Shown in pieces: positions 15,462 through 63,933 of a DNA stretch of 64,000 nt. Numbering within the stretch: position 1 is the first letter of the stretch; each line of letters begins with the position of its first letter. A program made the position numbers and the translations under genes. The notes under the pieces were generated by a model that searched no databases, was not told where the DNA came from, and saw only the letters and a list, made by a program, of their open reading frames with translations. The stretch comes from Betaproteobacteria bacterium (GTDB lineage Bacteria; Pseudomonadota; Gammaproteobacteria; Burkholderiales; SG8-39), in NCBI GenBank assembly GCA_022340705.1, contig JAJDNJ010000143.1, forward strand, positions 17,095 through 81,094. Reading direction: 5' to 3'.

Positions 15462-17254
15462 GGTCGAAAGCGCCGCAGCGTCTTCTGCAAAGTCTCGTTG
15501 TCCGGGTGCTCGCGCAGCGCCTCGTCCCATATGCGGTTCGCTTCGGCGTGATCACCCGCGACCCACAGCACTTCGCCCAGGTGAGCACCGATTTCCGCAT
15601 CCGGACGCAGCGACCAGGCCCGCCGCAGCTGGACCACCGCGCCCTGGGTATCGCCTTGGCGGTAGAGCACCCATCCCATCGAATCGACGATGAAGGCGTC
15701 GTTCGGTGCGAGCTGGAGCGCGCGCTCGATGAGCGTGCGGGCCTCGTCGAGCCGCATGTTGCGGTCGGCGAAGGAGTAGCCCAGCGCGTTGTAGGCGTGG
15801 GCGTGATTCGGACGCTCCTTGATCAGCGTACGCAGATTGGTTTCGAGCACGTCGAAACGCTCGAGCTTCTCGGCGGTCAGCGCCTGGTCGTAGAGCAGGT
15901 CGGGCTCGCCGGGGTTGTCTTTGAGCGCTTTCGTGAGAAGGTTGAACGCTTCGTCGTCGCGCTTGGCCTCGCGCAGGATCTGCGCTTCGGCCATCAGAAT
16001 CTGCACCTTCTGCTGCTCTTCCTTCACGACGATTCCGCGCAGATAGGCGCGCGCATCGTCCAGGCGGCCCTGCTTGGCCATGACGCTGGCCACGCGCAGC
16101 TGGGCAGGGAGCGCCTGTTCCCCGGCGCCCACCGATTCGTACCAGCGAATCGCCTTCGCCCAGTCCTTCTGCTCTTCGGCGATCTGGCCCAGCGTGTAGC
16201 GCACCGCATTGACGTCGCGATAGTTGAGCTCGATCAGACGCTCCATGTTGCGCTCGGCGACCTCGTAATCCTTGAGCTGGAAGGCGAGCAGACCGACGGC
16301 GTAGATGACATCCGCATTTCCCGGATTGTCGGCAAGCAGCCGCTCGAACTGCTTGCGCGCTTCCGGGTAGCGCTTGTCGAGCACCAGCAATCGCGCATAG
16401 TTCATGCGCACATCGCGCTTGTCGGGAAATTGCTCGAGATAGCGTTCCAGGCCCGCGGCCGCCTCAGCCGGCGCGCGCGTCTGCAGGATCTGCGCTTCGT
16501 ACAGCGCGGCCACGTCCCAGTCCGGACGCAAGGCCGAAGCGCGTCGGATCGCTTCGAGCGCGGCCTTTTCGTCGCCCGCCGCGAACGCCGCCTGCGCGAC
16601 CGCAAAATGCGCTTCCGGCAGCTTCGGATAGGGTTCCGCGAGCCGGCGCACCACGCGCAGAGATGCGGCCTTGTCCGGATTGCGGCCCAGCAGCCGGTTG
16701 AGCTGCATGAATCCGGCAGCGGTGTTCGTACCTTTCGCCGCGAGCAGTTTCGCGATGTACTGCTCGGCTTCATCGACGCGCTTTGACGCGACCATCAGCG
16801 CCGTCACGGCATGCAGCGCGCGTATCGAATCCGGTTCGGTCTGATACCAGAGCTGCGCCGCCTCGAGTGCGAGCGCCTGATCGTGCGCCTCGCTCGCAAG
16901 TTCGAAGGCACGCTCTGCAACGCGCGGATCGCGCGTGCTCTTCGCAAGCTCGACATATGTCCGCGCCGCCAGCTCGGGCTTTCCTCGCTGGGCCGCAATT
17001 TCTCCGAGCAGGAACTCGTACAGCATGCCCTCGGACAGCGACTCCGCGGGCTGCGTGCTCGTTGGCGACACCACCGCAGCCGCGGTCTTGCCATGCGCGG
17101 CCGGTGCCTGCGGCGCCGCGGCCTGGGCCGGCGCCGCGGGCGATGCGCCTTGGGGCTTCGGCGCCTCTCCGATCGCCTCTATTTGCGTACAGGCGCCCGC
17201 GGCTGCGAGCACGGGAACGAGCGCAAACGGCAGGAAAAATCGCCGAAAAAACAT
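15458..17254 (-). CDS. tetratricopeptide-repeat lipoprotein
   Basis: I prefer ATG 17254 (MFFRRFFLPFALVPVLAAAGAC, lipobox). Repeated A-x-x-Y/F-x-x-A-L TPR-like helices run throughout. Confidence 0.75.
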   Translation of the reverse strand: MFFRRFFLPFALVPVLAAAGACTQIEAIGEAPKPQGASPAAPAQAAAPQAPAAHGKTAAAVVSPTSTQPAESLSEGMLYEFLLGEIAAQRGKPELAARTYVELAKSTRDPRVAERAFELASEAHDQALALEAAQLWYQTEPDSIRALHAVTALMVASKRVDEAEQYIAKLLAAKGTNTAAGFMQLNRLLGRNPDKAASLRVVRRLAEPYPKLPEAHFAVAQAAFAAGDEKAALEAIRRASALRPDWDVAALYEAQILQTRAPAEAAAGLERYLEQFPDKRDVRMNYARLLVLDKRYPEARKQFERLLADNPGNADVIYAVGLLAFQLKDYEVAERNMERLIELNYRDVNAVRYTLGQIAEEQKDWAKAIRWYESVGAGEQALPAQLRVASVMAKQGRLDDARAYLRGIVVKEEQQKVQILMAEAQILREAKRDDEAFNLLTKALKDNPGEPDLLYDQALTAEKLERFDVLETNLRTLIKERPNHAHAYNALGYSFADRNMRLDEARTLIERALQLAPNDAFIVDSMGWVLYRQGDTQGAVVQLRRAWSLRPDAEIGAHLGEVLWVAGDHAEANRIWDEALREHPDNETLQKTLRRFRP

Positions 17255-54991: not shown

Positions 54992-56149
54992 ATGAGCGAT
55001 TTCCTGTTCACGTCGGAATCGGTGTCGGAAGGGCACCCTGACAAGGTGTCCGACCAGATTTCGGACGCGGTACTCGACGCTATTTTAGCCAAAGACCCCC
55101 GCGCCCGCGTTGCGGCGGAAACCTTGGTCAAGGACAACTTGGTGGTGCTCGCCGGCGAGATCACCACGATCGCGGATGTGAAGTACCAGGACGTCGTGCG
55201 CCAGACCATCCGCCGTATCGGCTATACCGATCCGTCGGTCGGATTTGACGCCGATACCTGCACCATCCTCAACGTATACGGTCAGCAGTCGCCGGACATT
55301 GCGCAGGGCGTCGATGAGGGCAAGGGCATCGATCTCGATCAGGGCGCCGGCGACCAGGGCCTCATGTTCGGCTACGCCTGCGACGAGACCCCGGCGCTCA
55401 TGCCGCTGCCGATCTACATCGCGCACCGCCTCGTCGAGCGCCAGTCCGAAGTGCGGCGCGACGGCCGCCTCGCATGGCTGCGTCCGGACGCCAAGTCTCA
55501 GGTCACGGTGCGCTATCTGAACGGCAAGCCGGATGCGATCGAAACGGTGCTGATCTCGACCCAGCATGCGCCGGGCGTCACGCACGAGCAGCTCTCGGAA
55601 GGCGTGATCGAGGAGATCATCAAGCCCGTTCTGCCGAAGAATCTCGTGAAGGGCGACGTGCGCTACCTGGTCAACCCGACCGGCGCGTTCGAGATCGGCG
55701 GGCCCAAGGGCGATTGCGGCCTCACTGGACGCAAGATCATCGTCGACACCTACGGCGGCTCGGCGCCGCACGGCGGCGGCGCGTTCTCGGGCAAGGATCC
55801 CTCCAAGGTGGACCGCTCGGCGGCCTACGCGGGGCGCTATGTTGCCAAGAACATCGTCGCGGCAGGCCTGGCGCGGAAATGTCTCGTGCAGGTGTCCTAC
55901 GCGATCGGCGTGGCCAAGCCGACGTCGGTCATGGTGACCACGGAGGGAACCGGCAAGCTGTCGGACGAAAAGTTGGCGGCATTGGTGCTCGAGCACTTCG
56001 ATCTGCGTCCCAAGGGCATCGTGCAGATGCTCGATCTGCTGCGTCCGATCTACGAAAAAACAGCGGCCTACGGGCATTTTGGGCGCGAAGAGCCGGAGTT
56101 CACCTGGGAGGCCACCGACCGTGCGCTGGCCCTCAAGCAAGCCGCCTAG
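54992..56149 (+). CDS. metK: S-adenosylmethionine synthetase
   Basis: ATG 54992. [37 protein letters not shown]. Confidence 0.97.
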
Positions 56150-56167
56150 CCGGGGTATAATCGCGCC

Positions 56168-56233
56168 CTGCTGAGGAGCGCTGCATCCCCTGGTCAGCGG
56201 GGGTCAGGCTCAGCAAAATCAACGGCGCTCGCA
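56168..56233 (+). promoter_or_regulatory. SAH (S-adenosylhomocysteine) riboswitch aptamer
   Basis: CUGAGGAGCGCUGC-[AUCCCC...GGGGGU hairpin]-CAGGCUCAG-CAAAAUC-AACGGCGCUC matches the conserved blocks of the SAH riboswitch as I remember them. P1 is CUGAG/CUCAG and the pseudoknot is GAGCGCU/GGCGCUC. It sits directly upstream of ahcY. Confidence 0.8.
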
Positions 56234-56261
56234 TCGAATCCGGTGCGGGCGCTTTGTTTTT
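56225..56261 (+). terminator. intrinsic terminator acting as the SAH riboswitch expression platform
   Basis: GCGCUCGCAUCG-AAUC-CGGUGCGGGCGC (12 bp, two G-U pairs) followed by UUUGUUUUU. Its 5' arm overlaps the 3' strand of the aptamer pseudoknot. Confidence 0.75.
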
Positions 56262-56305
56262 GGGGCTCCCCCCGGACCGTCATATTTCGATAGGAGCTTC
56301 TCGCC

Positions 56306-57718
56306 ATGAACGCACCCAACCCGAAGTTCACCGACTACAAGGTCGCCGACCTCGCGCTCGCCGATTGGGGCCGCAAGGAGATGACCATCGCCGAGCACGA
56401 AATGCCGGCGCTGATGGCGATTCGCGACGAATACGCCAAGTCCAAGCCGCTCAAAGGCGCGCGCATCGCCGGATCGCTGCATATGACGATCCAGACCGCG
56501 GTGCTCATCGAAACCCTGACTGCGCTCGGCGCCGAGGTGCGCTGGGCGTCGTGCAACATCTTTTCGACCCAGGACCATGCCGCGGCGGCGATCGCGGCCG
56601 GTGGCACGCCGGTATACGCCTATAAGGGCGAGTCGCTCGAGGAATACTGGGATTTCACCCACCGTATCTTCGAGTTCGGCGGCGGCAAGGGGCCGAACAT
56701 GATCCTCGATGATGGCGGCGACGCGACGCTGCTCATGCACTTGGGCGTGCGCGCGGAAAAGAACGTCTCGGTGCTCGACAAGCCGACGAGCGAGGAAGAA
56801 ACTGCCCTTTTCGCTGCGATCAAGAAGCGTCTCGCCGCGCAGCCAGGCTGGTATTCGAAGAAGTCGAAGGAAATCCGGGGCGTCACCGAGGAAACGACGA
56901 CTGGCGTGCACCGCCTGTACCAGATGGCGAAGGACGGTCGTCTGATGTTCCCCGCGATCAACGTCAACGACTCGGTGACCAAATCCAAATTCGACAACAT
57001 CTATGGCTGCCGCGAGTCGCTGGTCGACGGCATCAAGCGTGCGACCGACGTGATGATCGCAGGCAAGATCGCCGTAGTCTGCGGCTACGGCGAGGTGGGC
57101 AAGGGCTCGGCGCAGGCGCTCCGCGGCCTGCAGGCGCAGGTCTGGGTGACGGAGATCGACCCGATCTGCGCCTTGCAGGCGGCGATGGAAGGCTATCGGG
57201 TCGTGACGATGGAGGAGGCGGCGCCGCTCGCCGACATCTTCGTCACCGCAACGGGCAATTTGGACGTCATTAAACACGCGCACATGAAGGCGATGAAGAA
57301 CAATGCGATCGTGTGCAACATCGGCCATTTCGACAACGAGATCGACGTCGCCAGCCTGAATGATTGCAACTGGGAGGAGATCAAGCCGCAGGTCGATCAC
57401 GTGATCTTCCCGGACGGCAAGCGCATCATCATGCTGGCCAAGGGGCGCCTCGTGAACCTGGGCTGCGCGACCGGTCACCCTTCCTACGTGATGAGCTCCT
57501 CGTTCGCCAACCAGGTGCTTGCGCAGATCGAACTGTTCAACAACACGTCGAAGTACCCGGTGGGGGTGTACATCCTGCCCAAGGAACTCGACGAGAAAGT
57601 TGCGCGCCTGCAGTTGTCCAAGCTTGGCGCGTCGCTCACCGTGCTGACCGAGGCGCAGGCCGCGTACATCGGCGTGCCGAAGGAAGGTCCCTACAAGGCG
57701 GAGCACTACCGGTATTAA
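56306..57718 (+). CDS. ahcY: adenosylhomocysteinase
   Basis: 470 aa, [34 protein letters not shown] site. Confidence 0.97.
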
Positions 57719-57728
57719 GAGCAACGAT

Positions 57729-57764
57729 GCGTTGCGAGGCAGCGTAAACGCTGCGTCGCAACGC
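57729..57764 (+). terminator. long hairpin after ahcY (terminator-like, no U-tract)
   Basis: GCGTTGCGAGGCAGCG-taaa-CGCTGCGTCGCAACGC, 16-bp arms with one mismatch, starting 11 nt after the ahcY stop. Confidence 0.45.
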
Positions 57765-57784
57765 CAACCGTCAGAAAGGGCGCC

Positions 57785-58702
57785 ATGCGGATTGCCGTAA
57801 TGGGTGCGGGAGGCGTCGGCGGCTATTTCGGCGGCCGGCTCGCGCAGGCGGGGAACGACGTCGTATTCATCGCGCGCGGGAGGCATCTCGACGCCCTGCG
57901 CAGCAAGGGTCTCGCGCTGAAAAGTCCCACGGGCGACGCGACGCTCAAGGTCACGGCGGTGGACGATCCGGCCGCTGCCGGACCTGTCGAAGTCGTGCTG
58001 TTCGCGGTGAAGCTGTGGGACACCGAAGCCGCCGCCGAGCGTTTGCAGCCGCTGCTCGCCAAAGGCGGCGTGGTGATCCCGTTCCAGAATGGCGTCGAGT
58101 CGGTCGCGCGCATCAGCGCCGTGCTCGGAGCCGAGCGCGTGCTGGGCGGCGCAGCGTACATCGCCGCGCGCATCGGCGAGCCGGGCCAGATTGTGCAGAC
58201 CGGCAGCATGGCGCGTCTGCGCTTCGGCGCGATCCAGCCGTCGCAGCACACGGCGGCGCAGGCGTTCCACGCGGCCTGCGTCGGCGCGGGGATCGACGCC
58301 GAGCGGGTCGACGATATCGTGCGCGTTCTATGGGAAAAGTTCGTGCTGCTCGTGGCGGTCAGTGGCACGACGACGGTTGCCCGCTCGCGCATCGGCGTGG
58401 TGCGCGCGGACCCGGATCTGCGTTGGTTGCTCGAGGCCGCGATGCGCGAGACCTGGCAGGTCGGGCGCAAGCTCGGCGTGACCCTCGCCGACGATTTGGT
58501 CGCCGCCACCCTGAAGATGGTCGACGGGCTGCCTGCCGAGATGACTTCGTCGATGCACGGCGACCTGGACGCCGGGGGGCGGCTCGAGGCACCCTGGCTG
58601 GCGGGGGCGGTCGCGCGCATGGCGCTGGCACAGGGACTGCAGACACCGGCCAATCGCGCGATCTACGCCGCGCTGAAACCCTTCATCGACGGTCGCCGAT
58701 GA
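57785..58702 (+). CDS. ketopantoate reductase (PanE/ApbA) family oxidoreductase
   Basis: 305 aa. MRIAVMGAGGVGGYFGGRLA Rossmann motif, and a WEKF...S..M..D C-terminal domain pattern. Confidence 0.75.
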   Translation: MRIAVMGAGGVGGYFGGRLAQAGNDVVFIARGRHLDALRSKGLALKSPTGDATLKVTAVDDPAAAGPVEVVLFAVKLWDTEAAAERLQPLLAKGGVVIPFQNGVESVARISAVLGAERVLGGAAYIAARIGEPGQIVQTGSMARLRFGAIQPSQHTAAQAFHAACVGAGIDAERVDDIVRVLWEKFVLLVAVSGTTTVARSRIGVVRADPDLRWLLEAAMRETWQVGRKLGVTLADDLVAATLKMVDGLPAEMTSSMHGDLDAGGRLEAPWLAGAVARMALAQGLQTPANRAIYAALKPFIDGRR

Positions 58703-59538
58703 GCGCGACGCGACGCCGTAACTTCAGTTTCGAGTTCTTTCCGCCCAAGACGCCGCAAGGCCGCGAAAAGCTGCGCGCGACCTGGCACGAACTCGCGAAG
58801 ATTAAGCCACAATTCTTTTCGGTCACTTTCGGCGCCGGCGGATCGACCCGCGAGGGCACGCTGGAGACGGTGCTCGAGATCCGCGCCGCGGGGCACGAAG
58901 CCGCGCCGCATATCTCCTGCGTAGCATCGACGCGCGCCGATGTCGCGGCGCAGCTCGAGCAGTACCGCAGCCACGGGATCCGCCACATCGTCGCCCTGCG
59001 CGGAGACCTGCCCTCGGGGCTCGCCGCGGCGGGCGAGTTTCGGTATGCAAGCGAACTGGTTGCGTTCATTCGCGAGTCCACCGGGGACTGGTTCACGATC
59101 GACGTGGCCTGCTACCCCGAGTACCACCCGCAGACGCGCAGTGCCGCGGACGAAATCCGCAATTTCAAGAAGAAGATCGACGCGGGCGCGAACACCGCGA
59201 TTACGCAGTACTTCTATAGCGCCGATGCTTACTTCCGCTTCGTCGACGACTGCCGCGCGGCCGGTATCAGCGTCCCGATCGTCGCGGGCATCATGCCGAT
59301 CGCGAATTTTTCGCAGCTCGCACGCTTTTCCGACGTCTGCGGCGCCGAGATTCCGCGCTGGATCCGCTTCAAGCTCGAGTCCTTCCGCGACGACAGCGCG
59401 TCGATCCGGGCTTTCGGCCTCGACGTCGTCACGCGTCTATGCGAGCAGCTGCTCGCCGGCGGCGCGCCAGGGCTGCACTTCTACACCCTCAATCAGGCGC
59501 CCCTGCCGGCCGAGATCTGCAGGCGGCTCGGCGCATAA
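58699..59538 (+). CDS. metF: methylenetetrahydrofolate reductase
   Basis: ATG 58699 (ATGA overlap). FSFEFFPPKTPQG, FSVTFGAGGSTR, CYPEYHPQ. Confidence 0.92.
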   Translation: MSATRRRNFSFEFFPPKTPQGREKLRATWHELAKIKPQFFSVTFGAGGSTREGTLETVLEIRAAGHEAAPHISCVASTRADVAAQLEQYRSHGIRHIVALRGDLPSGLAAAGEFRYASELVAFIRESTGDWFTIDVACYPEYHPQTRSAADEIRNFKKKIDAGANTAITQYFYSADAYFRFVDDCRAAGISVPIVAGIMPIANFSQLARFSDVCGAEIPRWIRFKLESFRDDSASIRAFGLDVVTRLCEQLLAGGAPGLHFYTLNQAPLPAEICRRLGA

Positions 59539-59565
59539 CCATCGGTTTTCTGAGGCGATGAAGCC

Positions 59566-61401
59566 ATGAGCCGCGCGCGGCACGGCACGCTCGGCTGGCT
59601 GTTCGCTGCCGTGTTGTTGGTCGCCGCGCTGGAGCTTTTCTCGTTGAGGCTGTTCGGTCCGCTCGAGAACCGCCTGCTCGATGTCTTCGTGCGCAGCCAG
59701 GCCGCGCGCCTGGAACCCGACCCCGACGTCGTGCTCGTCGACATCGACGAGAGGAGTCTGGTGAACATGCAGGAAGTCGCGGGCCGCTGGCCATGGCCGC
59801 GCGCGGTTCACGCCGAGCTGATCGAAGGGCTCGAGGCGCAAAAGCCGCGCGCCATCGTTTTCGACATCACGTTCTCGGAGCCCGACAAGTTTCGGCCGGA
59901 AAGCGATCAGCAGTTCATCGAGGCCGTGGCGAAGTACACGAACATCTACTTTCCGCTCGTGCGCCTGGACCCGAGCGACGACCCGCGCGGCGTGCCCGCA
60001 CGCGACCTGGCTGGGCTGATCGGGCTGATTCCAGGGCCGGATGCAGATCCGAATGCGCGCATCGCGCTGATCCCGCCGCTGGTACTCCGCACCGAGCAGT
60101 GGCGTGCAGGCACGATCAATTTCGTCGAGGATTCCGACGGCGTCGGGCGACGCTACCGGCTGCGTACGCCGCTCTACGGTTGGACGATGCTCTCGCTGCC
60201 CGCGCGCGTCGCGCAGGATCTCGGTTGGACGATTCCCGCCGGGCAAGACATGGTGCTCGCCTGGCGCGGCGCGGCGGGCCAGTTCCCGCACGTGTCGTAC
60301 AGCGATCTGTACGAGGACTTCGACCGCTCCAATCGCCAGCGGCCGCCGAACGAGTTCAGCGGAAAGGTCGTGGTCATCGGAACCGCCGCCCCGGCTCTCC
60401 AGGACCTGCGCGTGACGCCGCTCGCGAGCCTGCATGCGGGTGGCGAGATACTCGGTACCGCGCTCGAGAATCTGAAGAACGGCAGGCATATGCATCCGGC
60501 GAATCGGGCCTGGGCGGGGACCGCGGGGTTCCTGCTTCTCGTCCTGCTCTACGCCGCGTTTCGCCGCAACGTGGATGCGCGCCTGACCGGCGCCGCCCTG
60601 CTCGCCGCGAGCCTCGTGCTGCTTGCAGTTTCGTACTTCGCCGTCGGTCGGCTGGTTCTGCTGCCGATGCTGACGCCGCTGGTCGCCGGCTGGGCGTTCT
60701 ATTTTGCGGCCGCGCTCGCGGCCTATCTGCGCGAACGGCGCAGCCGCGAAGAGGCGATCGCGCAATTCTCGCGCTTCGTCAATCCGACCGTCGTCCGCCA
60801 ACTCCTCGAGCGCGGCGGGCTCGAGGGTACGGGTCAGACGCGCGAGGTGACCCTGCTGTTCTCCGACATCCGCGGATTCACCACGCTTTCCGAGAACCAT
60901 GCGCCGCAGGAAGTCGTCGAGCTACTCAATCGCTACTTCACACTGCAGGTTGCGGTGGTGTTCCGCCACGGCGGCACGCTCGACAAGTTCATCGGCGACG
61001 CGATCATGGCGGTCTGGGGCGCTCCGCTCGAGGATCCGGATCACGCCGAGCATGCGGTGCGCTGCGCGCTCGAGATGGCCGAGACGCTGGAGACCTTCAA
61101 GTCCGGGCTGGGATCGCTCGGTGCCGACTTCGACGTCGGGATCGGAATCCATTCGGGGCCCGCGGTGGTCGGTCTGATCGGCTCGGACCAGCGGCGCGAA
61201 TACACCTCGATCGGCGATACGGTCAATCTCGCGAGCCGTATCGAAGGCCTTACCAAGGACGCGAAGCGCCGGATTCTGGTATCGCGCGAGACAATGGAAC
61301 GCTGCGGAAAGGGCTTTGACTTCGTGTCCTGCGGTTCGTATAAAGTGAAGGGCCGCGCACAGGAGGTGGAGCTGTTCGAGCCGAGGCGAAAACCGTCATG
61401 A
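59566..61401 (+). CDS. CHASE2 sensor-domain class III adenylate cyclase
   Basis: 611 aa. N-terminal TM, a ~300-aa periplasmic CHASE2-like region (VLVDIDERSL...WPWPRAVHAELI), three TM helices, then a cyclase domain (LLFSDIRGFT, DKFIGDAIMAVWG, GDTVNLASRIE). Confidence 0.85.
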   Translation: MSRARHGTLGWLFAAVLLVAALELFSLRLFGPLENRLLDVFVRSQAARLEPDPDVVLVDIDERSLVNMQEVAGRWPWPRAVHAELIEGLEAQKPRAIVFDITFSEPDKFRPESDQQFIEAVAKYTNIYFPLVRLDPSDDPRGVPARDLAGLIGLIPGPDADPNARIALIPPLVLRTEQWRAGTINFVEDSDGVGRRYRLRTPLYGWTMLSLPARVAQDLGWTIPAGQDMVLAWRGAAGQFPHVSYSDLYEDFDRSNRQRPPNEFSGKVVVIGTAAPALQDLRVTPLASLHAGGEILGTALENLKNGRHMHPANRAWAGTAGFLLLVLLYAAFRRNVDARLTGAALLAASLVLLAVSYFAVGRLVLLPMLTPLVAGWAFYFAAALAAYLRERRSREEAIAQFSRFVNPTVVRQLLERGGLEGTGQTREVTLLFSDIRGFTTLSENHAPQEVVELLNRYFTLQVAVVFRHGGTLDKFIGDAIMAVWGAPLEDPDHAEHAVRCALEMAETLETFKSGLGSLGADFDVGIGIHSGPAVVGLIGSDQRREYTSIGDTVNLASRIEGLTKDAKRRILVSRETMERCGKGFDFVSCGSYKVKGRAQEVELFEPRRKPS

Positions 61402-61901
61402 AGCCGTTCCGCGGACTTGGGTGCACTGTCGCGCTTGCGACCCTCTGGGTGCTGACGGCGCATGCCGATCCGGCCACCGTCATCCGGGCGGTCGATCTGA
61501 AGACGGCGCCCGCGAGTGATGCTGAGACGGTCGCCTCGCTCGAGGAGAATGCGACCGTTCAGACCGGCGAACGGCGCGGCGGCTGGGTTCAGGTCCGGAC
61601 CGACGCCGGTGCGAGCGGCTGGCTCAAATTTCTGGCCTTGCGTTTCAGCGGATCGAGCGCGCCAGAGTCGGGCGACAGCGGCATTGCCCAGCTGTTCAAC
61701 GCGGCGCGTAGCGGCAGCTCGGGATCTCAGGCGACAACCGGCGTTCGCGGCCTGGACGCGGAAGATATTTCCTCGGCGCAGCCCAATCCGGCGGCGTTGC
61801 GCAAGATGGACGCTTACGCGGTGAGCGCCGACGAGGCCGATCGCTTTGCCGCCGCCGGACCGTTGCAGGCGCAGAGCGTCGATTACCCGCCGGAGGAATG
61901 A
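61398..61901 (+). CDS. secreted SH3b-domain protein with a Ser/Gly/Ala-rich tail
   Basis: 167 aa. Signal peptide ...LWVLTAHA. SH3-like core RGGWVQVRTDAGASGWL. ATGA overlap with the cyclase. Confidence 0.6.
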   Translation: MKPFRGLGCTVALATLWVLTAHADPATVIRAVDLKTAPASDAETVASLEENATVQTGERRGGWVQVRTDAGASGWLKFLALRFSGSSAPESGDSGIAQLFNAARSGSSGSQATTGVRGLDAEDISSAQPNPAALRKMDAYAVSADEADRFAAAGPLQAQSVDYPPEE

Positions 61902-61902
61902 G

Positions 61903-62754
61903 ATGATGCGCGCGCTCCTGGTGCTCTCCTGCCTGCTGTGCCTCGCGGCCGGTCGCGCGCATGCGCAGTTCAACCTCGACATCAACCGGCTGATCGACAC
62001 GGCGAAGAGCCTCAGCCAGGCGAGCACTGAAATCGACGAGCAGGGCGAAATCGAGATCGGCCGGGACGTGGCGTCGCGCCTGCTCGGCGCGGCGCCGCTG
62101 CATCCAAACACGTCCCTGCAGCGCTACGTCAATGACGTTGGGCGCTGGCTGGCGTCGCGCACCGAGCGCGCCGGACTGCCCTGGCGCTTTGCCGTGCTCG
62201 ATGCGCCGCAAGTGAACGCATTCGCGACCCCCGGGGGATATATCTTCGTGACCGGCGGTCTGGTCGCACGGATGCATTCGGAAGCCGAGCTCGCCGGGGT
62301 GCTCGCGCACGAGATCGTGCACGTGCTGCGCAAGCACCATCTCAAGGCGATTCAGAAAGGTGCCCTCGCGAACGTCGCAAGCAATGTCGTCGCGCTTGCG
62401 CTCCAGGACCGCAACTCGGAGCTGCGCAACCGGCTCGTGTCCTTCGGTACCGAACTCTATGTGCGCGGTCTCGACAAGTCCGACGAGCTCGAAGCCGACC
62501 GCCTTGGCGTGGTGATCGCCGCACGCGGCGGCTACGACCCCTGGGGCCTGCCGGTCGTGCTGCAGACCCTGCAGGCGATGAACCCGGAGGACTCCGCGGT
62601 CGCGCTGATGTTCAAGACCCACCCGGCGCCGACCGAACGACTCGACGCGCTCGAGCAGCGCATGCTGCCGACGCTCGACGCCTATGCCGCGCAGCCGCAG
62701 CTGGCGGATCGCTTTCTCGCGAGCGTCGGCGGCACGAGCGCCAAGCGTCGTTAG
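61903..62754 (+). CDS. secreted M48-family zinc metalloprotease
   Basis: ATG 61903, 1 nt after the SH3 gene stop, with a GGAGGA Shine-Dalgarno. Signal peptide MMRALLVLSCLLCLAAGRAHA. HEIVHVLRKHH plus ELEADRLG. Confidence 0.8.
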   Translation: MMRALLVLSCLLCLAAGRAHAQFNLDINRLIDTAKSLSQASTEIDEQGEIEIGRDVASRLLGAAPLHPNTSLQRYVNDVGRWLASRTERAGLPWRFAVLDAPQVNAFATPGGYIFVTGGLVARMHSEAELAGVLAHEIVHVLRKHHLKAIQKGALANVASNVVALALQDRNSELRNRLVSFGTELYVRGLDKSDELEADRLGVVIAARGGYDPWGLPVVLQTLQAMNPEDSAVALMFKTHPAPTERLDALEQRMLPTLDAYAAQPQLADRFLASVGGTSAKRR

Positions 62755-63809
62755 TCGAGCCGTTCGACTTGCGTACGGCCCGTTGGGCCCGCGCGCTGGT
62801 ACGCCCGCCAGGGCGCCTGGTCGACATCGCGGCACACCCCGTAGCGAAACGGTACGTTGCCACGACCCGGAGTCAGAAAGCGCAGGTCTTCGAACCACAC
62901 GCAGGTCGAGCCATGCGTGATTCCGTCGAAGGCTGGCTTGTCCGCGAACCAGCGAAAGAACGCGAGCGAGGGCGCGTTCCAGGCGTCGCGCGCAAGCTTC
63001 TCGGTCTGCGCCGCGTCGCCATAGCGTGAACGCGTCTCCCAGTGCGCCTGCGCAACGGGGAGGTAGGCGGCATCCAGCCGGGCGAGCAGGCCGGCGTCGG
63101 GCGCAAGCATGAGTGGTTGCTCGCGCACGAGGTTCACGTGCGCAAAATGGTGCGCCCTGTCGTCGCTGACGAAAACCGTCCAGTTGAACGGCGAAAGCGG
63201 CCGGGGCAGCGCGGTCACGCTCGCATCGGCCAGCCCGTGCGTGACGGCATAGCGTGCGCCGATCTCTTCGGCGCGCTGCTTCTGCACCCACTGAAAGCCG
63301 ACATAACCGACGAGCACGATGCTCGCGATGACCGCCGGCAGGCGCGTGCGCCGGAAAAGCGCAGCCGCGACCAGCCCGACGACGATGATTCCGGTAAACC
63401 AGAGATCGATGATGAACGTCGTCCCGAGCGCGGCGCGCCAATCCGATAGCGGCGCGAACACCATGGTGCCGAAACTGGTGATCACGTCGCCGACGATGTG
63501 CGCAGCGAGTGCCAGCGCGCAGACACCGTACAGGGCGCGCCAGCCGCCGGGCTCGCGCAGCAGCTTTGCGAGCACCCAGGACAGGACGAGCGCCCAAAGC
63601 GGCAGCATGAGCAGCGAATGCGTGACGCCGCGGTGAAACTGGAGGTACTTGACCGGACCGAAGAAGCCGATGACGAAATCGAGATCCGGCGCCGCACAGG
63701 CGAAGAACCCGGCCGCAACGCGCCGTGCGATGGCGCCGCGCTGAGCGGCGCTCTGCGACGTCGCGCGCGCGAAGAGCGCACCAGACAGCGCGTGGGTCAG
63801 CGTATCCAT
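62751..63809 (-). CDS. membrane-bound metal-dependent hydrolase, YdjM/YbcI (DUF457)-like, with a C-terminal extension
   Basis: 352 aa. MDTLTHALSGALFARA N-terminus, several TM helices with HxxxD/H contexts, then a ~170-aa soluble C-terminal domain. Confidence 0.68.
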   Translation of the reverse strand: MDTLTHALSGALFARATSQSAAQRGAIARRVAAGFFACAAPDLDFVIGFFGPVKYLQFHRGVTHSLLMLPLWALVLSWVLAKLLREPGGWRALYGVCALALAAHIVGDVITSFGTMVFAPLSDWRAALGTTFIIDLWFTGIIVVGLVAAALFRRTRLPAVIASIVLVGYVGFQWVQKQRAEEIGARYAVTHGLADASVTALPRPLSPFNWTVFVSDDRAHHFAHVNLVREQPLMLAPDAGLLARLDAAYLPVAQAHWETRSRYGDAAQTEKLARDAWNAPSLAFFRWFADKPAFDGITHGSTCVWFEDLRFLTPGRGNVPFRYGVCRDVDQAPWRAYQRAGPTGRTQVERLD

Positions 63810-63833: not shown

Positions 63834-63933
63834 GGGGGGATCTGAAGGGGGGCGGAGGCGTTTTGCTGCAACCCCCTTTCAACTCGGGGGATCCGAAGGG
63901 GGACGGAGGCGTTTTGCCGCAGCCCTCCTTCAA
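63834..63933. repeat. two tandem copies of a ~50-bp internally palindromic (REP-like) element
   Basis: Copy 1 is GGGGGATCTGAAGGGGGGCGGAGGCGTTTTGCTGCAACCCCCTTTCAA. Copy 2 is GGGGGATCCGAAGGGGGACGGAGGCGTTTTGCCGCAGCCCTCCTTCAA. Each has GAAGGGGG...CCCCCTTC-type inverted arms. The region is intergenic. Confidence 0.7.

Follow-up and report, generated by a model that had tools for sequence, protein, structure and literature searches.

A CHASE2 class III cyclase encoded together with a secreted SH3b protein and a secreted M48 protease: a possible envelope-sensing module of beta- and gammaproteobacteria

In Escherichia coli, the inner-membrane sensor CpxA is held by the small periplasmic protein CpxP, which the periplasmic protease DegP takes away under stress (PMC4160245). 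The YfiBNR (TpbB) system of Pseudomonas aeruginosa, encoded by a three-gene operon, consists of an inner-membrane nucleotide cyclase, a periplasmic regulator and an envelope protein that relieves the regulation (PMC2837407, PMC3375315, PMC4887326). Partners of CHASE2 sensors have also been described: in the 'BiofilmReg' operon of Burkholderia, a secreted LysM+FecR protein is encoded beside a CHASE2 histidine kinase, with genes that overlap or nearly do so (PMC5192318), and the CHASE2 class III cyclases CyaD1, CyaD2 and CyaK of Sinorhizobium meliloti are activated via a protein signal and the accessory envelope protein NsrA (PMC7529298, PMC13001267). Here, we describe three genes from a 64,000-nucleotide stretch of a Betaproteobacteria bacterium of the order Burkholderiales (assembly GCA_022340705.1, contig JAJDNJ010000143.1, forward-strand positions 17,095 to 81,094), hereafter the window, to which all positions refer. 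The extracytoplasmic sensor domain CHASE2 is widespread. In the window, the plus strand carries a CHASE2 adenylate cyclase gene (positions 59566-61401, 611 residues, with Pfam matches to CHASE2 and Guanylate_cyc), a gene for a secreted protein with an SH3b domain and a conserved tail, hereafter the SH3-tail protein (61398-61901, 167 residues), and a gene for a secreted M48 zinc metalloprotease without a TPR domain (61903-62754, 283 residues). We propose that the trio constitutes one envelope-sensing module, in which the SH3-tail protein regulates CHASE2 and the M48 protease sets the level or the form of this regulator; we hold this reading tentatively, at a little under an even chance.

The evidence that carries this proposal is the constancy of the trio. 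GTDB genomes, one per species, were scanned with the SH3 family alignment, giving 67 loci, and metagenome contigs were scanned with gamma-type SH3 proteins, giving 80 further loci, for a total of 147 from beta- and gammaproteobacteria. The queries used to find the loci were the SH3 protein only, without cyclase or protease sequence; the partners were then sought by tblastn with the window domains, a locus being testable for a partner where its contig leaves room for it. A cyclase domain is present upstream of the SH3 gene in 128 of 128 testable loci, CHASE2 is present upstream in 84 of 84, and an M48 gene lies downstream in 139 of 139, with the order and strand of the genes constant across the loci. 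Absence of the trio from related genomes had been named in a preliminary description of the locus as a ground for abandoning the module; instead, the partners are present in every locus of the 147 where they could be looked for. No SH3-tail protein lacking the cyclase or the M48 partner was found in any testable locus, and the tail family adjoins this cyclase in each locus examined. In a profile search with beta- and gamma-type SH3 sequences, the matches listed were all close relatives from Burkholderiales, so that the edge of the family was not reached.

About 45 Burkholderiales loci all have the same metK-ahcY-panE-metF block upstream. Lineages in which the flanking genes are different are stronger evidence of conservation than these syntenic loci. 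The surroundings of the trio differ in Vibrio profundi, Vibrio sp. Of7-15, Psychromonas aquimarina, P. ossibalaenae and Oceanococcus, and in several metagenomic lineages it is flanked by topA, rapA and other unrelated genes; in lineages with unrelated flanks it is intact at 32-42% identity of the SH3 protein. The distance matrices of the three proteins correlate pairwise at 0.85-0.93 in a mirror-tree analysis, which fits inheritance of the trio as a unit; the partial correlations among the three are 0.3-0.5, and no partner stands out.

This pattern also bears on a simpler explanation, that the genes are co-expressed without a signalling link, the SH3-tail protein and the M48 protease being a pair for envelope maintenance or the cell wall, or an output of use at any time when the cyclase is produced, neither of them acting on CHASE2. 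The region is wholly syntenic in Burkholderiales, so that adjacency there may be inherited rather than selected; the relatives of the M48 protease are general quality-control proteases, and SH3b domains commonly bind the cell wall, as would suit such a pair. The persistence of the trio amid unrelated flanks at the low identities given above, the lack, among the testable loci, of any in which the SH3-tail protein is without either partner, and the position of the tail family beside this cyclase in all loci examined argue against mere co-expression, and we regard it as unlikely.

The SH3-tail protein starts with a predicted signal peptide, read from the sequence as residues 1-23 (61398-61466), ending in LTAHA and followed by DPATV. 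When N-termini of the family are aligned, a variable, hydrophobic stretch precedes an invariant A-x-P-A-T. The signal peptides given to both partners in the preliminary description agree with what is seen here: by hydropathy and reading of the sequence, the N-terminus of both the SH3 and the M48 protein is a hydrophobic leader with AHA as its last residues. A lipoprotein form of the SH3-tail protein of the window was considered and rejected, the Cys not being conserved in Burkholderiales. The SH3b domain spans residues 27-83 (61476-61646). Its Pfam matches are marginal, with 27.6 bits for SH3_3 (PF08239) at a cut-off of 27 and 24.1 bits for SH3_4 (PF06347) at a cut-off of 24.1; the domain of orthologues scores better (34.3 bits, for example). 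AlphaFold2, given the family alignment, builds the beta strands of an SH3 barrel from residues 27-83, and the top Foldseek matches of the model are SH3 domains, including the bacterial structures 2krs, 2kt8 and 3npf, with only the SH3 part aligned.

Residues 84-167 (61647-61898) form a conserved C-terminal region. The preliminary description had seen a low-complexity tail here, a view that does not hold: the Shannon entropy of the 84-residue tail is 3.65 bits, compared with 3.74 bits for the SH3 domain, and the tail is strongly conserved and bears a motif. It has no Pfam model and no relative in the PDB. Within Burkholderiales, it holds most of the invariant positions of the protein, which follow the pattern ...GDSG...N.AR..SG.Q.TTGVRGLD..A.P... 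and include Asp93, Gly95, Asn101, Ala103, Arg104, Ser108, Gln111 and Thr113 to Asp120. The GDSG in this pattern was considered as a serine protease motif and rejected, since it is missing in gamma-type orthologues. The motif TG(V/I)RGL, from Thr114 to Leu119 (61737-61754), is found in alignments across beta and gamma lineages. In a 17-sequence alignment (A2), to which SH3 orthologues of Vibrio, Psychromonas and Oceanococcus at 32-37% identity were added, Thr114, Gly115, Arg117, Gly118 and Leu119 are invariant together with the SH3 core. The rows of 25 trios agree on the residues of the motif apart from Leu119, a nearly invariant position in these rows at which L076 has Ile, and over 154 sequences, most positions of the motif are at least 98% conserved.

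In the AlphaFold2 model, residues 84-119 have a predicted local distance difference test score (pLDDT) below 50 and are followed by three short helices between residues 121 and 153. The stretch predicted to be disordered in a model of the protein by itself thus coincides with its most conserved stretch, a combination characteristic of motifs for docking or cleavage. A query with the tail only matched 419 clusters at 50% identity among 1.84 billion representatives. Most of the best 150 of these 419 matches are 155-200 residues long, with the tail at residues 85-165 or so, while a minority of the 150 are shorter, probably because they are fragments, or longer, up to 274 residues. Among these 150 matches, an N-terminal region the size of an SH3 domain joined to the tail as one fixed architecture is the predominant pattern.

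The cyclase contains the sensor to which such a protein could bind. A transmembrane helix at residues 9-27 (59590-59646; Kyte-Doolittle window score of 2.22) is followed by the periplasmic CHASE2 domain, residues 30-315 (59653-60510), and three hydrophobic helices, at residues 316-392 approximately (60511-60741), lead the chain back to the cytoplasm. Hydropathy maxima lie at residues 342-360 and 363-386, and a third, shorter segment, AGFLLLVLLYAAF, was read from the sequence. Hydropathy thus agrees with the topology proposed in the preliminary description, with a single transmembrane helix at the N-terminus, then an external CHASE2 domain of about 290 residues, and then several hydrophobic helices ahead of the catalytic domain. 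The match to CHASE2 (PF05226) covers residues 17-328 with 170.5 bits, far over the cut-off of 26.3 (E-value of 6.6e-50), and the AlphaFold2 model of the domain has a pLDDT of 91.7 and a predicted template modelling score of 0.91. By sequence and Foldseek searches of the PDB, CHASE2 is still without a solved structure, and no relative was found there by either route (best Foldseek E-value of 0.49, template modelling score of about 0.2). The acidic and aromatic residues invariant in all lineages are the Asp of DIDE, WPWPR, FD, further Asp residues and D.DG..R.Y. In the literature, we found no ligand reported to bind CHASE2 directly.

The catalytic domain occupies residues 424-600 (60835-61365) and matches Guanylate_cyc (PF00211) over the same range with 112.7 bits, at a cut-off of 21.9 (E-value of 2e-32). 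Its metal-binding residues are Asp434 and Asp478, its substrate residues Lys474 and Thr547, and its transition-state residues Asn554 and Arg558. Asp434, Lys474 and Asp478 are present in 106 of 106 orthologues of the cyclase; for Thr547, Asn554 and Arg558, the count is 105 of 106, the single exception being a gap in the alignment. These orthologues are 594-613 residues long and unchanged in architecture. PDB relatives of the domain reach an E-value of 8.5e-37, and the nearest solved catalytic domain is that of Synechocystis Cya2 (2w01, E-value of 1.4e-34). The substrate-specifying position is a Glu in this structure, a Lys engineered into the chimera 6fht, and Lys474 in the cyclase of the window. 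The second specificity position is taken by Thr547, as in the class IIIb group. As Lys474 and Thr547, in place of the Glu and Gly of Cya2, are kept across the orthologues, ATP is predicted as the substrate, and judged from these residues the protein would be an adenylate cyclase.

The third protein matches Peptidase_M48 (PF01435) with 104.8 bits, at a cut-off of 20.3 (E-value of 6.3e-30); with this match and those above, Pfam profile searches bear out all four domain calls of the preliminary description. The zinc-binding and catalytic motif HEIVH is encoded at 62308-62322, as seen in the sequence and the alignment of orthologues. His136, Glu137, His140, Glu195 (the Glu of ExxAD) and Asp199 are conserved in 123 of 123 M48 orthologues and His240, of THP, in 122 of 123. 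Both enzymes therefore have complete catalytic sites in the window and in the orthologues, as had been noted for the cyclase; with all catalytic residues kept, neither is a decayed passenger. The M48 structures nearest to it are the Geobacter peptidase 3c37 and the BepA protease domain, and in NCBIfam the nearest models are those of BepA and LoiP. The window protease is not BepA, as judged from the failure of the BepA model NF052400, which reaches 101.2 bits at a cut-off of 570 and is matched at profile positions 39-252 of 483 only. The model for the M48 lipoprotein LoiP, NF052399, fails likewise, with 57.5 bits at a cut-off of 365.

In Burkholderiales, the signal peptide of the M48 protease is a plain one that stops at AQA, with QF next to it. 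Neither the window protein nor its Burkholderiales orthologues have a conserved lipobox Cys, and a lipoprotein form of the window protease was rejected because of this. Several gamma-type orthologues do have a lipobox, LLSC or LSAC for example (those of L066, L068, L071, L075, L076, L107 and L133), and are predicted lipoproteins, so the localisation of the protease differs between lineages.

An invariant motif in a disordered segment, with an intact protease encoded alongside, suggests that the SH3-tail protein both regulates CHASE2 and is itself cut by the M48 protease. By analogy with processed pheromones, the protease could also free a peptide from the tail that is itself the CHASE2 ligand, an autocrine or cell-density signal. 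The conserved motif does lie in an unstructured segment with a folded part on either side, and the gene of a dedicated protease with an intact active site adjoins, as such a pro-peptide would call for. Pheromone peptides, however, normally diversify between species, and this motif is invariant from Burkholderiales to Vibrio; the module also contains no exporter gene, leaving a periplasmic peptide without an obvious route out and back. The invariance of the motif across classes disfavours this explanation, which we think very improbable.

At the junctions of the trio, the start of the SH3 gene overlaps the stop of the cyclase gene in the tetranucleotide ATGA (61398-61401), and the stop codon TGA of the SH3 gene (61899-61901) is separated from the ATG of the M48 gene at 61903 by 1 nucleotide. 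The Shine-Dalgarno sequence of the M48 gene, GGAGGA (61892-61897), lies 5 nucleotides before this ATG, within the 3' end of the SH3 gene. The open reading frames and the sequence bear out this arrangement of three same-strand genes as first described. A TTG at 61846 was rejected as the start of the M48 gene, as the orthologues begin at the equivalent of 61903. Independent promoters at the junctions had been named as a second ground against the module. No promoter-like or terminator-like site was found at either junction in weak consensus scans of the window, and in Burkholderiales the junctions are start/stop overlaps, a 4-nucleotide overlap being usual both between the cyclase and SH3 genes and between the SH3 and M48 genes. 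In the Vibrio and Psychromonas loci, the gap between the cyclase and SH3 genes is about 110 nucleotides and that between the SH3 and M48 genes 13-41 nucleotides. The SH3 and M48 genes thus stay together when the spacing between cyclase and SH3 genes changes, which makes them the tighter pair of the three.

A tight pair would also be expected if the SH3-tail protein were an adaptor or activator of the M48 protease rather than its substrate, and the two together cut CHASE2, or an envelope protein whose fragments CHASE2 senses. Adaptors of this kind are NlpI for Prc and LbcA for CtpA. The SH3 and M48 genes remain adjacent at the short spacing just given even where the cyclase-SH3 gap is long or another gene is inserted in it; coupled expression at 1:1 suits a stable complex better than an enzyme and its substrate; and a protease that is a lipoprotein in several gamma-type lineages and soluble in Burkholderiales shows the flexible localisation of adaptor-dependent proteases. 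An invariant motif in a disordered stretch, on the other hand, resembles a cleavage or docking site more than the surface of an adaptor, and the pair would likewise act upstream of CHASE2, so that this explanation overlaps with the module proposed above. As a distinct mechanism, we consider the adaptor improbable.

In the module in which the SH3-tail protein regulates CHASE2, the cyclase would reside in the inner membrane with CHASE2 as its only periplasmic part, and the SH3-tail protein and the M48 protease would be exported to the periplasm. With the cyclase domain in the cytoplasm and both partners exported, a direct functional link must pass through CHASE2, and it is this compartment logic that suggests the role in the input pathway first proposed for the two secreted proteins in the preliminary description. 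The SH3-tail protein would be a dedicated periplasmic regulator of CHASE2, binding through the TG(V/I)RGL motif, the C-terminal helices or both, while its SH3b domain may anchor it to peptidoglycan or another envelope component. An envelope cue would then alter its accessibility, upon which the M48 protease would cut or remove it, and this cleavage would switch the synthesis of cyclic AMP (cAMP) by the Lys/Thr-type class III domain. We infer that the SH3-tail protein is cleaved and that cAMP is the product, and likewise all of the protein contacts, the direction of the regulation and the cue. A more specific version, in which the SH3-tail protein itself binds CHASE2 as its ligand, its TG(V/I)RGL motif folding onto the domain, and is cut by the dedicated M48 protease on a cell-wall or envelope cue, seems to us rather unlikely; in this version, Arg117 of the motif would perhaps enter a cluster of the invariant acidic residues of CHASE2.

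Several points weigh against a module of this kind. Most of the 147 loci belong to one Burkholderiales radiation with conserved synteny and are orthologous positions within it, so the independent observations are far fewer than 147. The gap of about 110 nucleotides between the cyclase and SH3 genes in gamma lineages, together with the insertion there of an opposite-strand gene in one locus, means that strict translational coupling is not universal. Covariation of the tail and SH3 domain with CHASE2 and the M48 protease (mutual information with average product correction, 90 trios, effective number of sequences of 51) is not above that of the negative control, the cytoplasmic cyclase domain, which is out of periplasmic reach and scored equal or higher. 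The SH3_3 score of the window protein barely exceeds its cut-off. The solved or curated M48 relatives, BepA and LoiP among them, are general envelope quality-control proteases, and a single dedicated substrate for the M48 protease is an assumption.

Signalling genes accompany the trio in other lineages. A protein of about 670 residues with GAF and HD-GYP (HD_5) domains is encoded next to it in 13 gamma-type loci, upstream and on the same strand in loci of the Vibrio/Psychromonas type (L066-L070, L072 and L075), whereas a second lineage (L076-L078, L080, L089 and L090) has it downstream and on the other strand. Clustering of the flanks by longest open reading frame was noisy, owing to high GC content and antisense reading frames, and the HD-GYP leads it gave were then checked. 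That this neighbour is kept through rearrangement suggests a functional link to the trio. On the simplest reading, it is plausible that the GAF domain binds a cyclic nucleotide and controls the hydrolysis of cyclic di-GMP (c-di-GMP); the protein would then be a plausible receiver in the Vibrio/Psychromonas-like lineages, coupling cAMP to c-di-GMP breakdown. The trio of the window has no such neighbour.

Other genes were seen beside the module in single loci. A dCache_3-HAMP-cyclase is encoded at L075:107-1999 and a dCache_3-PAS-GGDEF-EAL protein at L128:1262-4063. In Vibrio sp. Of7-15, a gene for a 301-residue outer-membrane barrel (PF13557) is located between the cyclase and SH3 genes (L068:5550-6455, minus strand); this single case recalls the S. 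meliloti CHASE2 cyclases, which need the outer-membrane protein NsrA.

In the window, the methyl-cycle genes metK, ahcY, a panE-like reductase gene and metF occupy positions 54994-59565, directly 5' of the trio and on the same strand. The end of metF is 27 nucleotides from the start of the cyclase gene, no terminator-like site was found between them in the consensus scan, and transcripts of metF may extend into the trio. On the 3' side, the stop codon TAG of the M48 gene (62752-62754) overlaps by 4 nucleotides the stop of the convergent gene ydjM (62751-63809, minus strand; Pfam YdjM), so that a terminator cannot fit between the two. A convergent ydjM also lies directly 3' of the M48 gene in some Burkholderiales loci and a few kilobases off in others. 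The intergenic region just upstream of the minus-strand ydjM start contains a G-rich element of 48 nucleotides twice in tandem (63835-63933), the copies being 88% identical and 51 nucleotides apart; it may be a regulatory repeat or one resembling repetitive extragenic palindromic sequences.

In full-text literature searches, no paper turned up that describes the trio or ties CHASE2 to SH3 or M48 proteins. The preliminary description knew of no earlier account of a protease-controlled second-messenger switch. For the combination of CHASE2 with SH3 and M48 proteins this stands as far as these searches go; gating by an accessory protein that is relieved by a protease or by sequestration is known, however (PMC4160245, PMC2837407, PMC4887326). 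The trio is built from ordinary families, and there are precedents for the logic proposed. A subfamily of CHASE2 tied to two small periplasmic proteins nevertheless offers a concrete and cheap handle on how CHASE2 recognises its input and switches. The module is compact and genetically tractable; the cultured strains Vibrio profundi, Psychromonas aquimarina ATCC BAA-1526 and P. ossibalaenae carry it, and its reconstitution in an E. coli cya mutant should be feasible. If the SH3-tail protein were indeed the direct ligand, it would be the first defined direct ligand, with a mechanism, for any CHASE2 sensor, and the trio a protease-gated bacterial cAMP switch that feeds a GAF/HD-GYP c-di-GMP phosphodiesterase in some lineages.

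Compared with known proteins and systems, the M48 protease of the trio has the protease domain and zinc site (HExxH, ExxAD and THP) in common with BepA, LoiP and 3c37. It differs from BepA and LoiP in scoring far under the NCBIfam equivalog cut-offs, in having no TPR domain like that of BepA, and in being genetically tied to a cyclase and an SH3 protein. Full-length Synechocystis Cya2 also carries CHASE2 (Cya2 is mentioned in PMC5995499); it has Glu and Gly at the substrate-specifying positions and makes cyclic GMP, whereas the trio cyclase has Lys474 and Thr547. For the S. meliloti cyclases, the accessory protein NsrA is an outer-membrane beta-barrel and the signal a host ribosomal protein, and an SH3 or M48 partner has not been reported. 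The LysM+FecR partner of the BiofilmReg operon is, like the SH3-tail protein, a secreted protein with a domain of a cell-wall-binding type, encoded next to a CHASE2 sensor gene. That operon differs from the trio in the LysM+FecR composition of the partner, for which the SH3-tail protein has no Pfam match at E-values up to 0.01, its only matches being SH3_3 and SH3_4; it also has no protease gene, and its output is a kinase.

The closest resemblances are in logic. YfiBNR is, like the trio, a tripartite cyclase module, and part of YfiBNR touches the cell wall. Its relief is via sequestration and not proteolysis, and its output is a GGDEF diguanylate cyclase that makes c-di-GMP; none of its Pfam families is found in the trio, the families of the periplasmic repressor YfiR, the GGDEF cyclase YfiN and the OmpA/Pal-like lipoprotein YfiB all being unmatched, so the resemblance is one of logic only. 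The Cpx system has the same logic as the mechanism proposed for the trio, with a histidine kinase and a PAS-like sensor where the trio has a cyclase and CHASE2, and with a helical accessory protein, CpxP, that has no relation to SH3. The gene of DegP, a serine protease of general function, lies at another site, whereas the M48 protease of the trio is encoded in the same operon as the sensor. If the module operates as proposed, the design in which an accessory protein is removed by a protease, known for two-component kinases, would extend to cAMP signalling.

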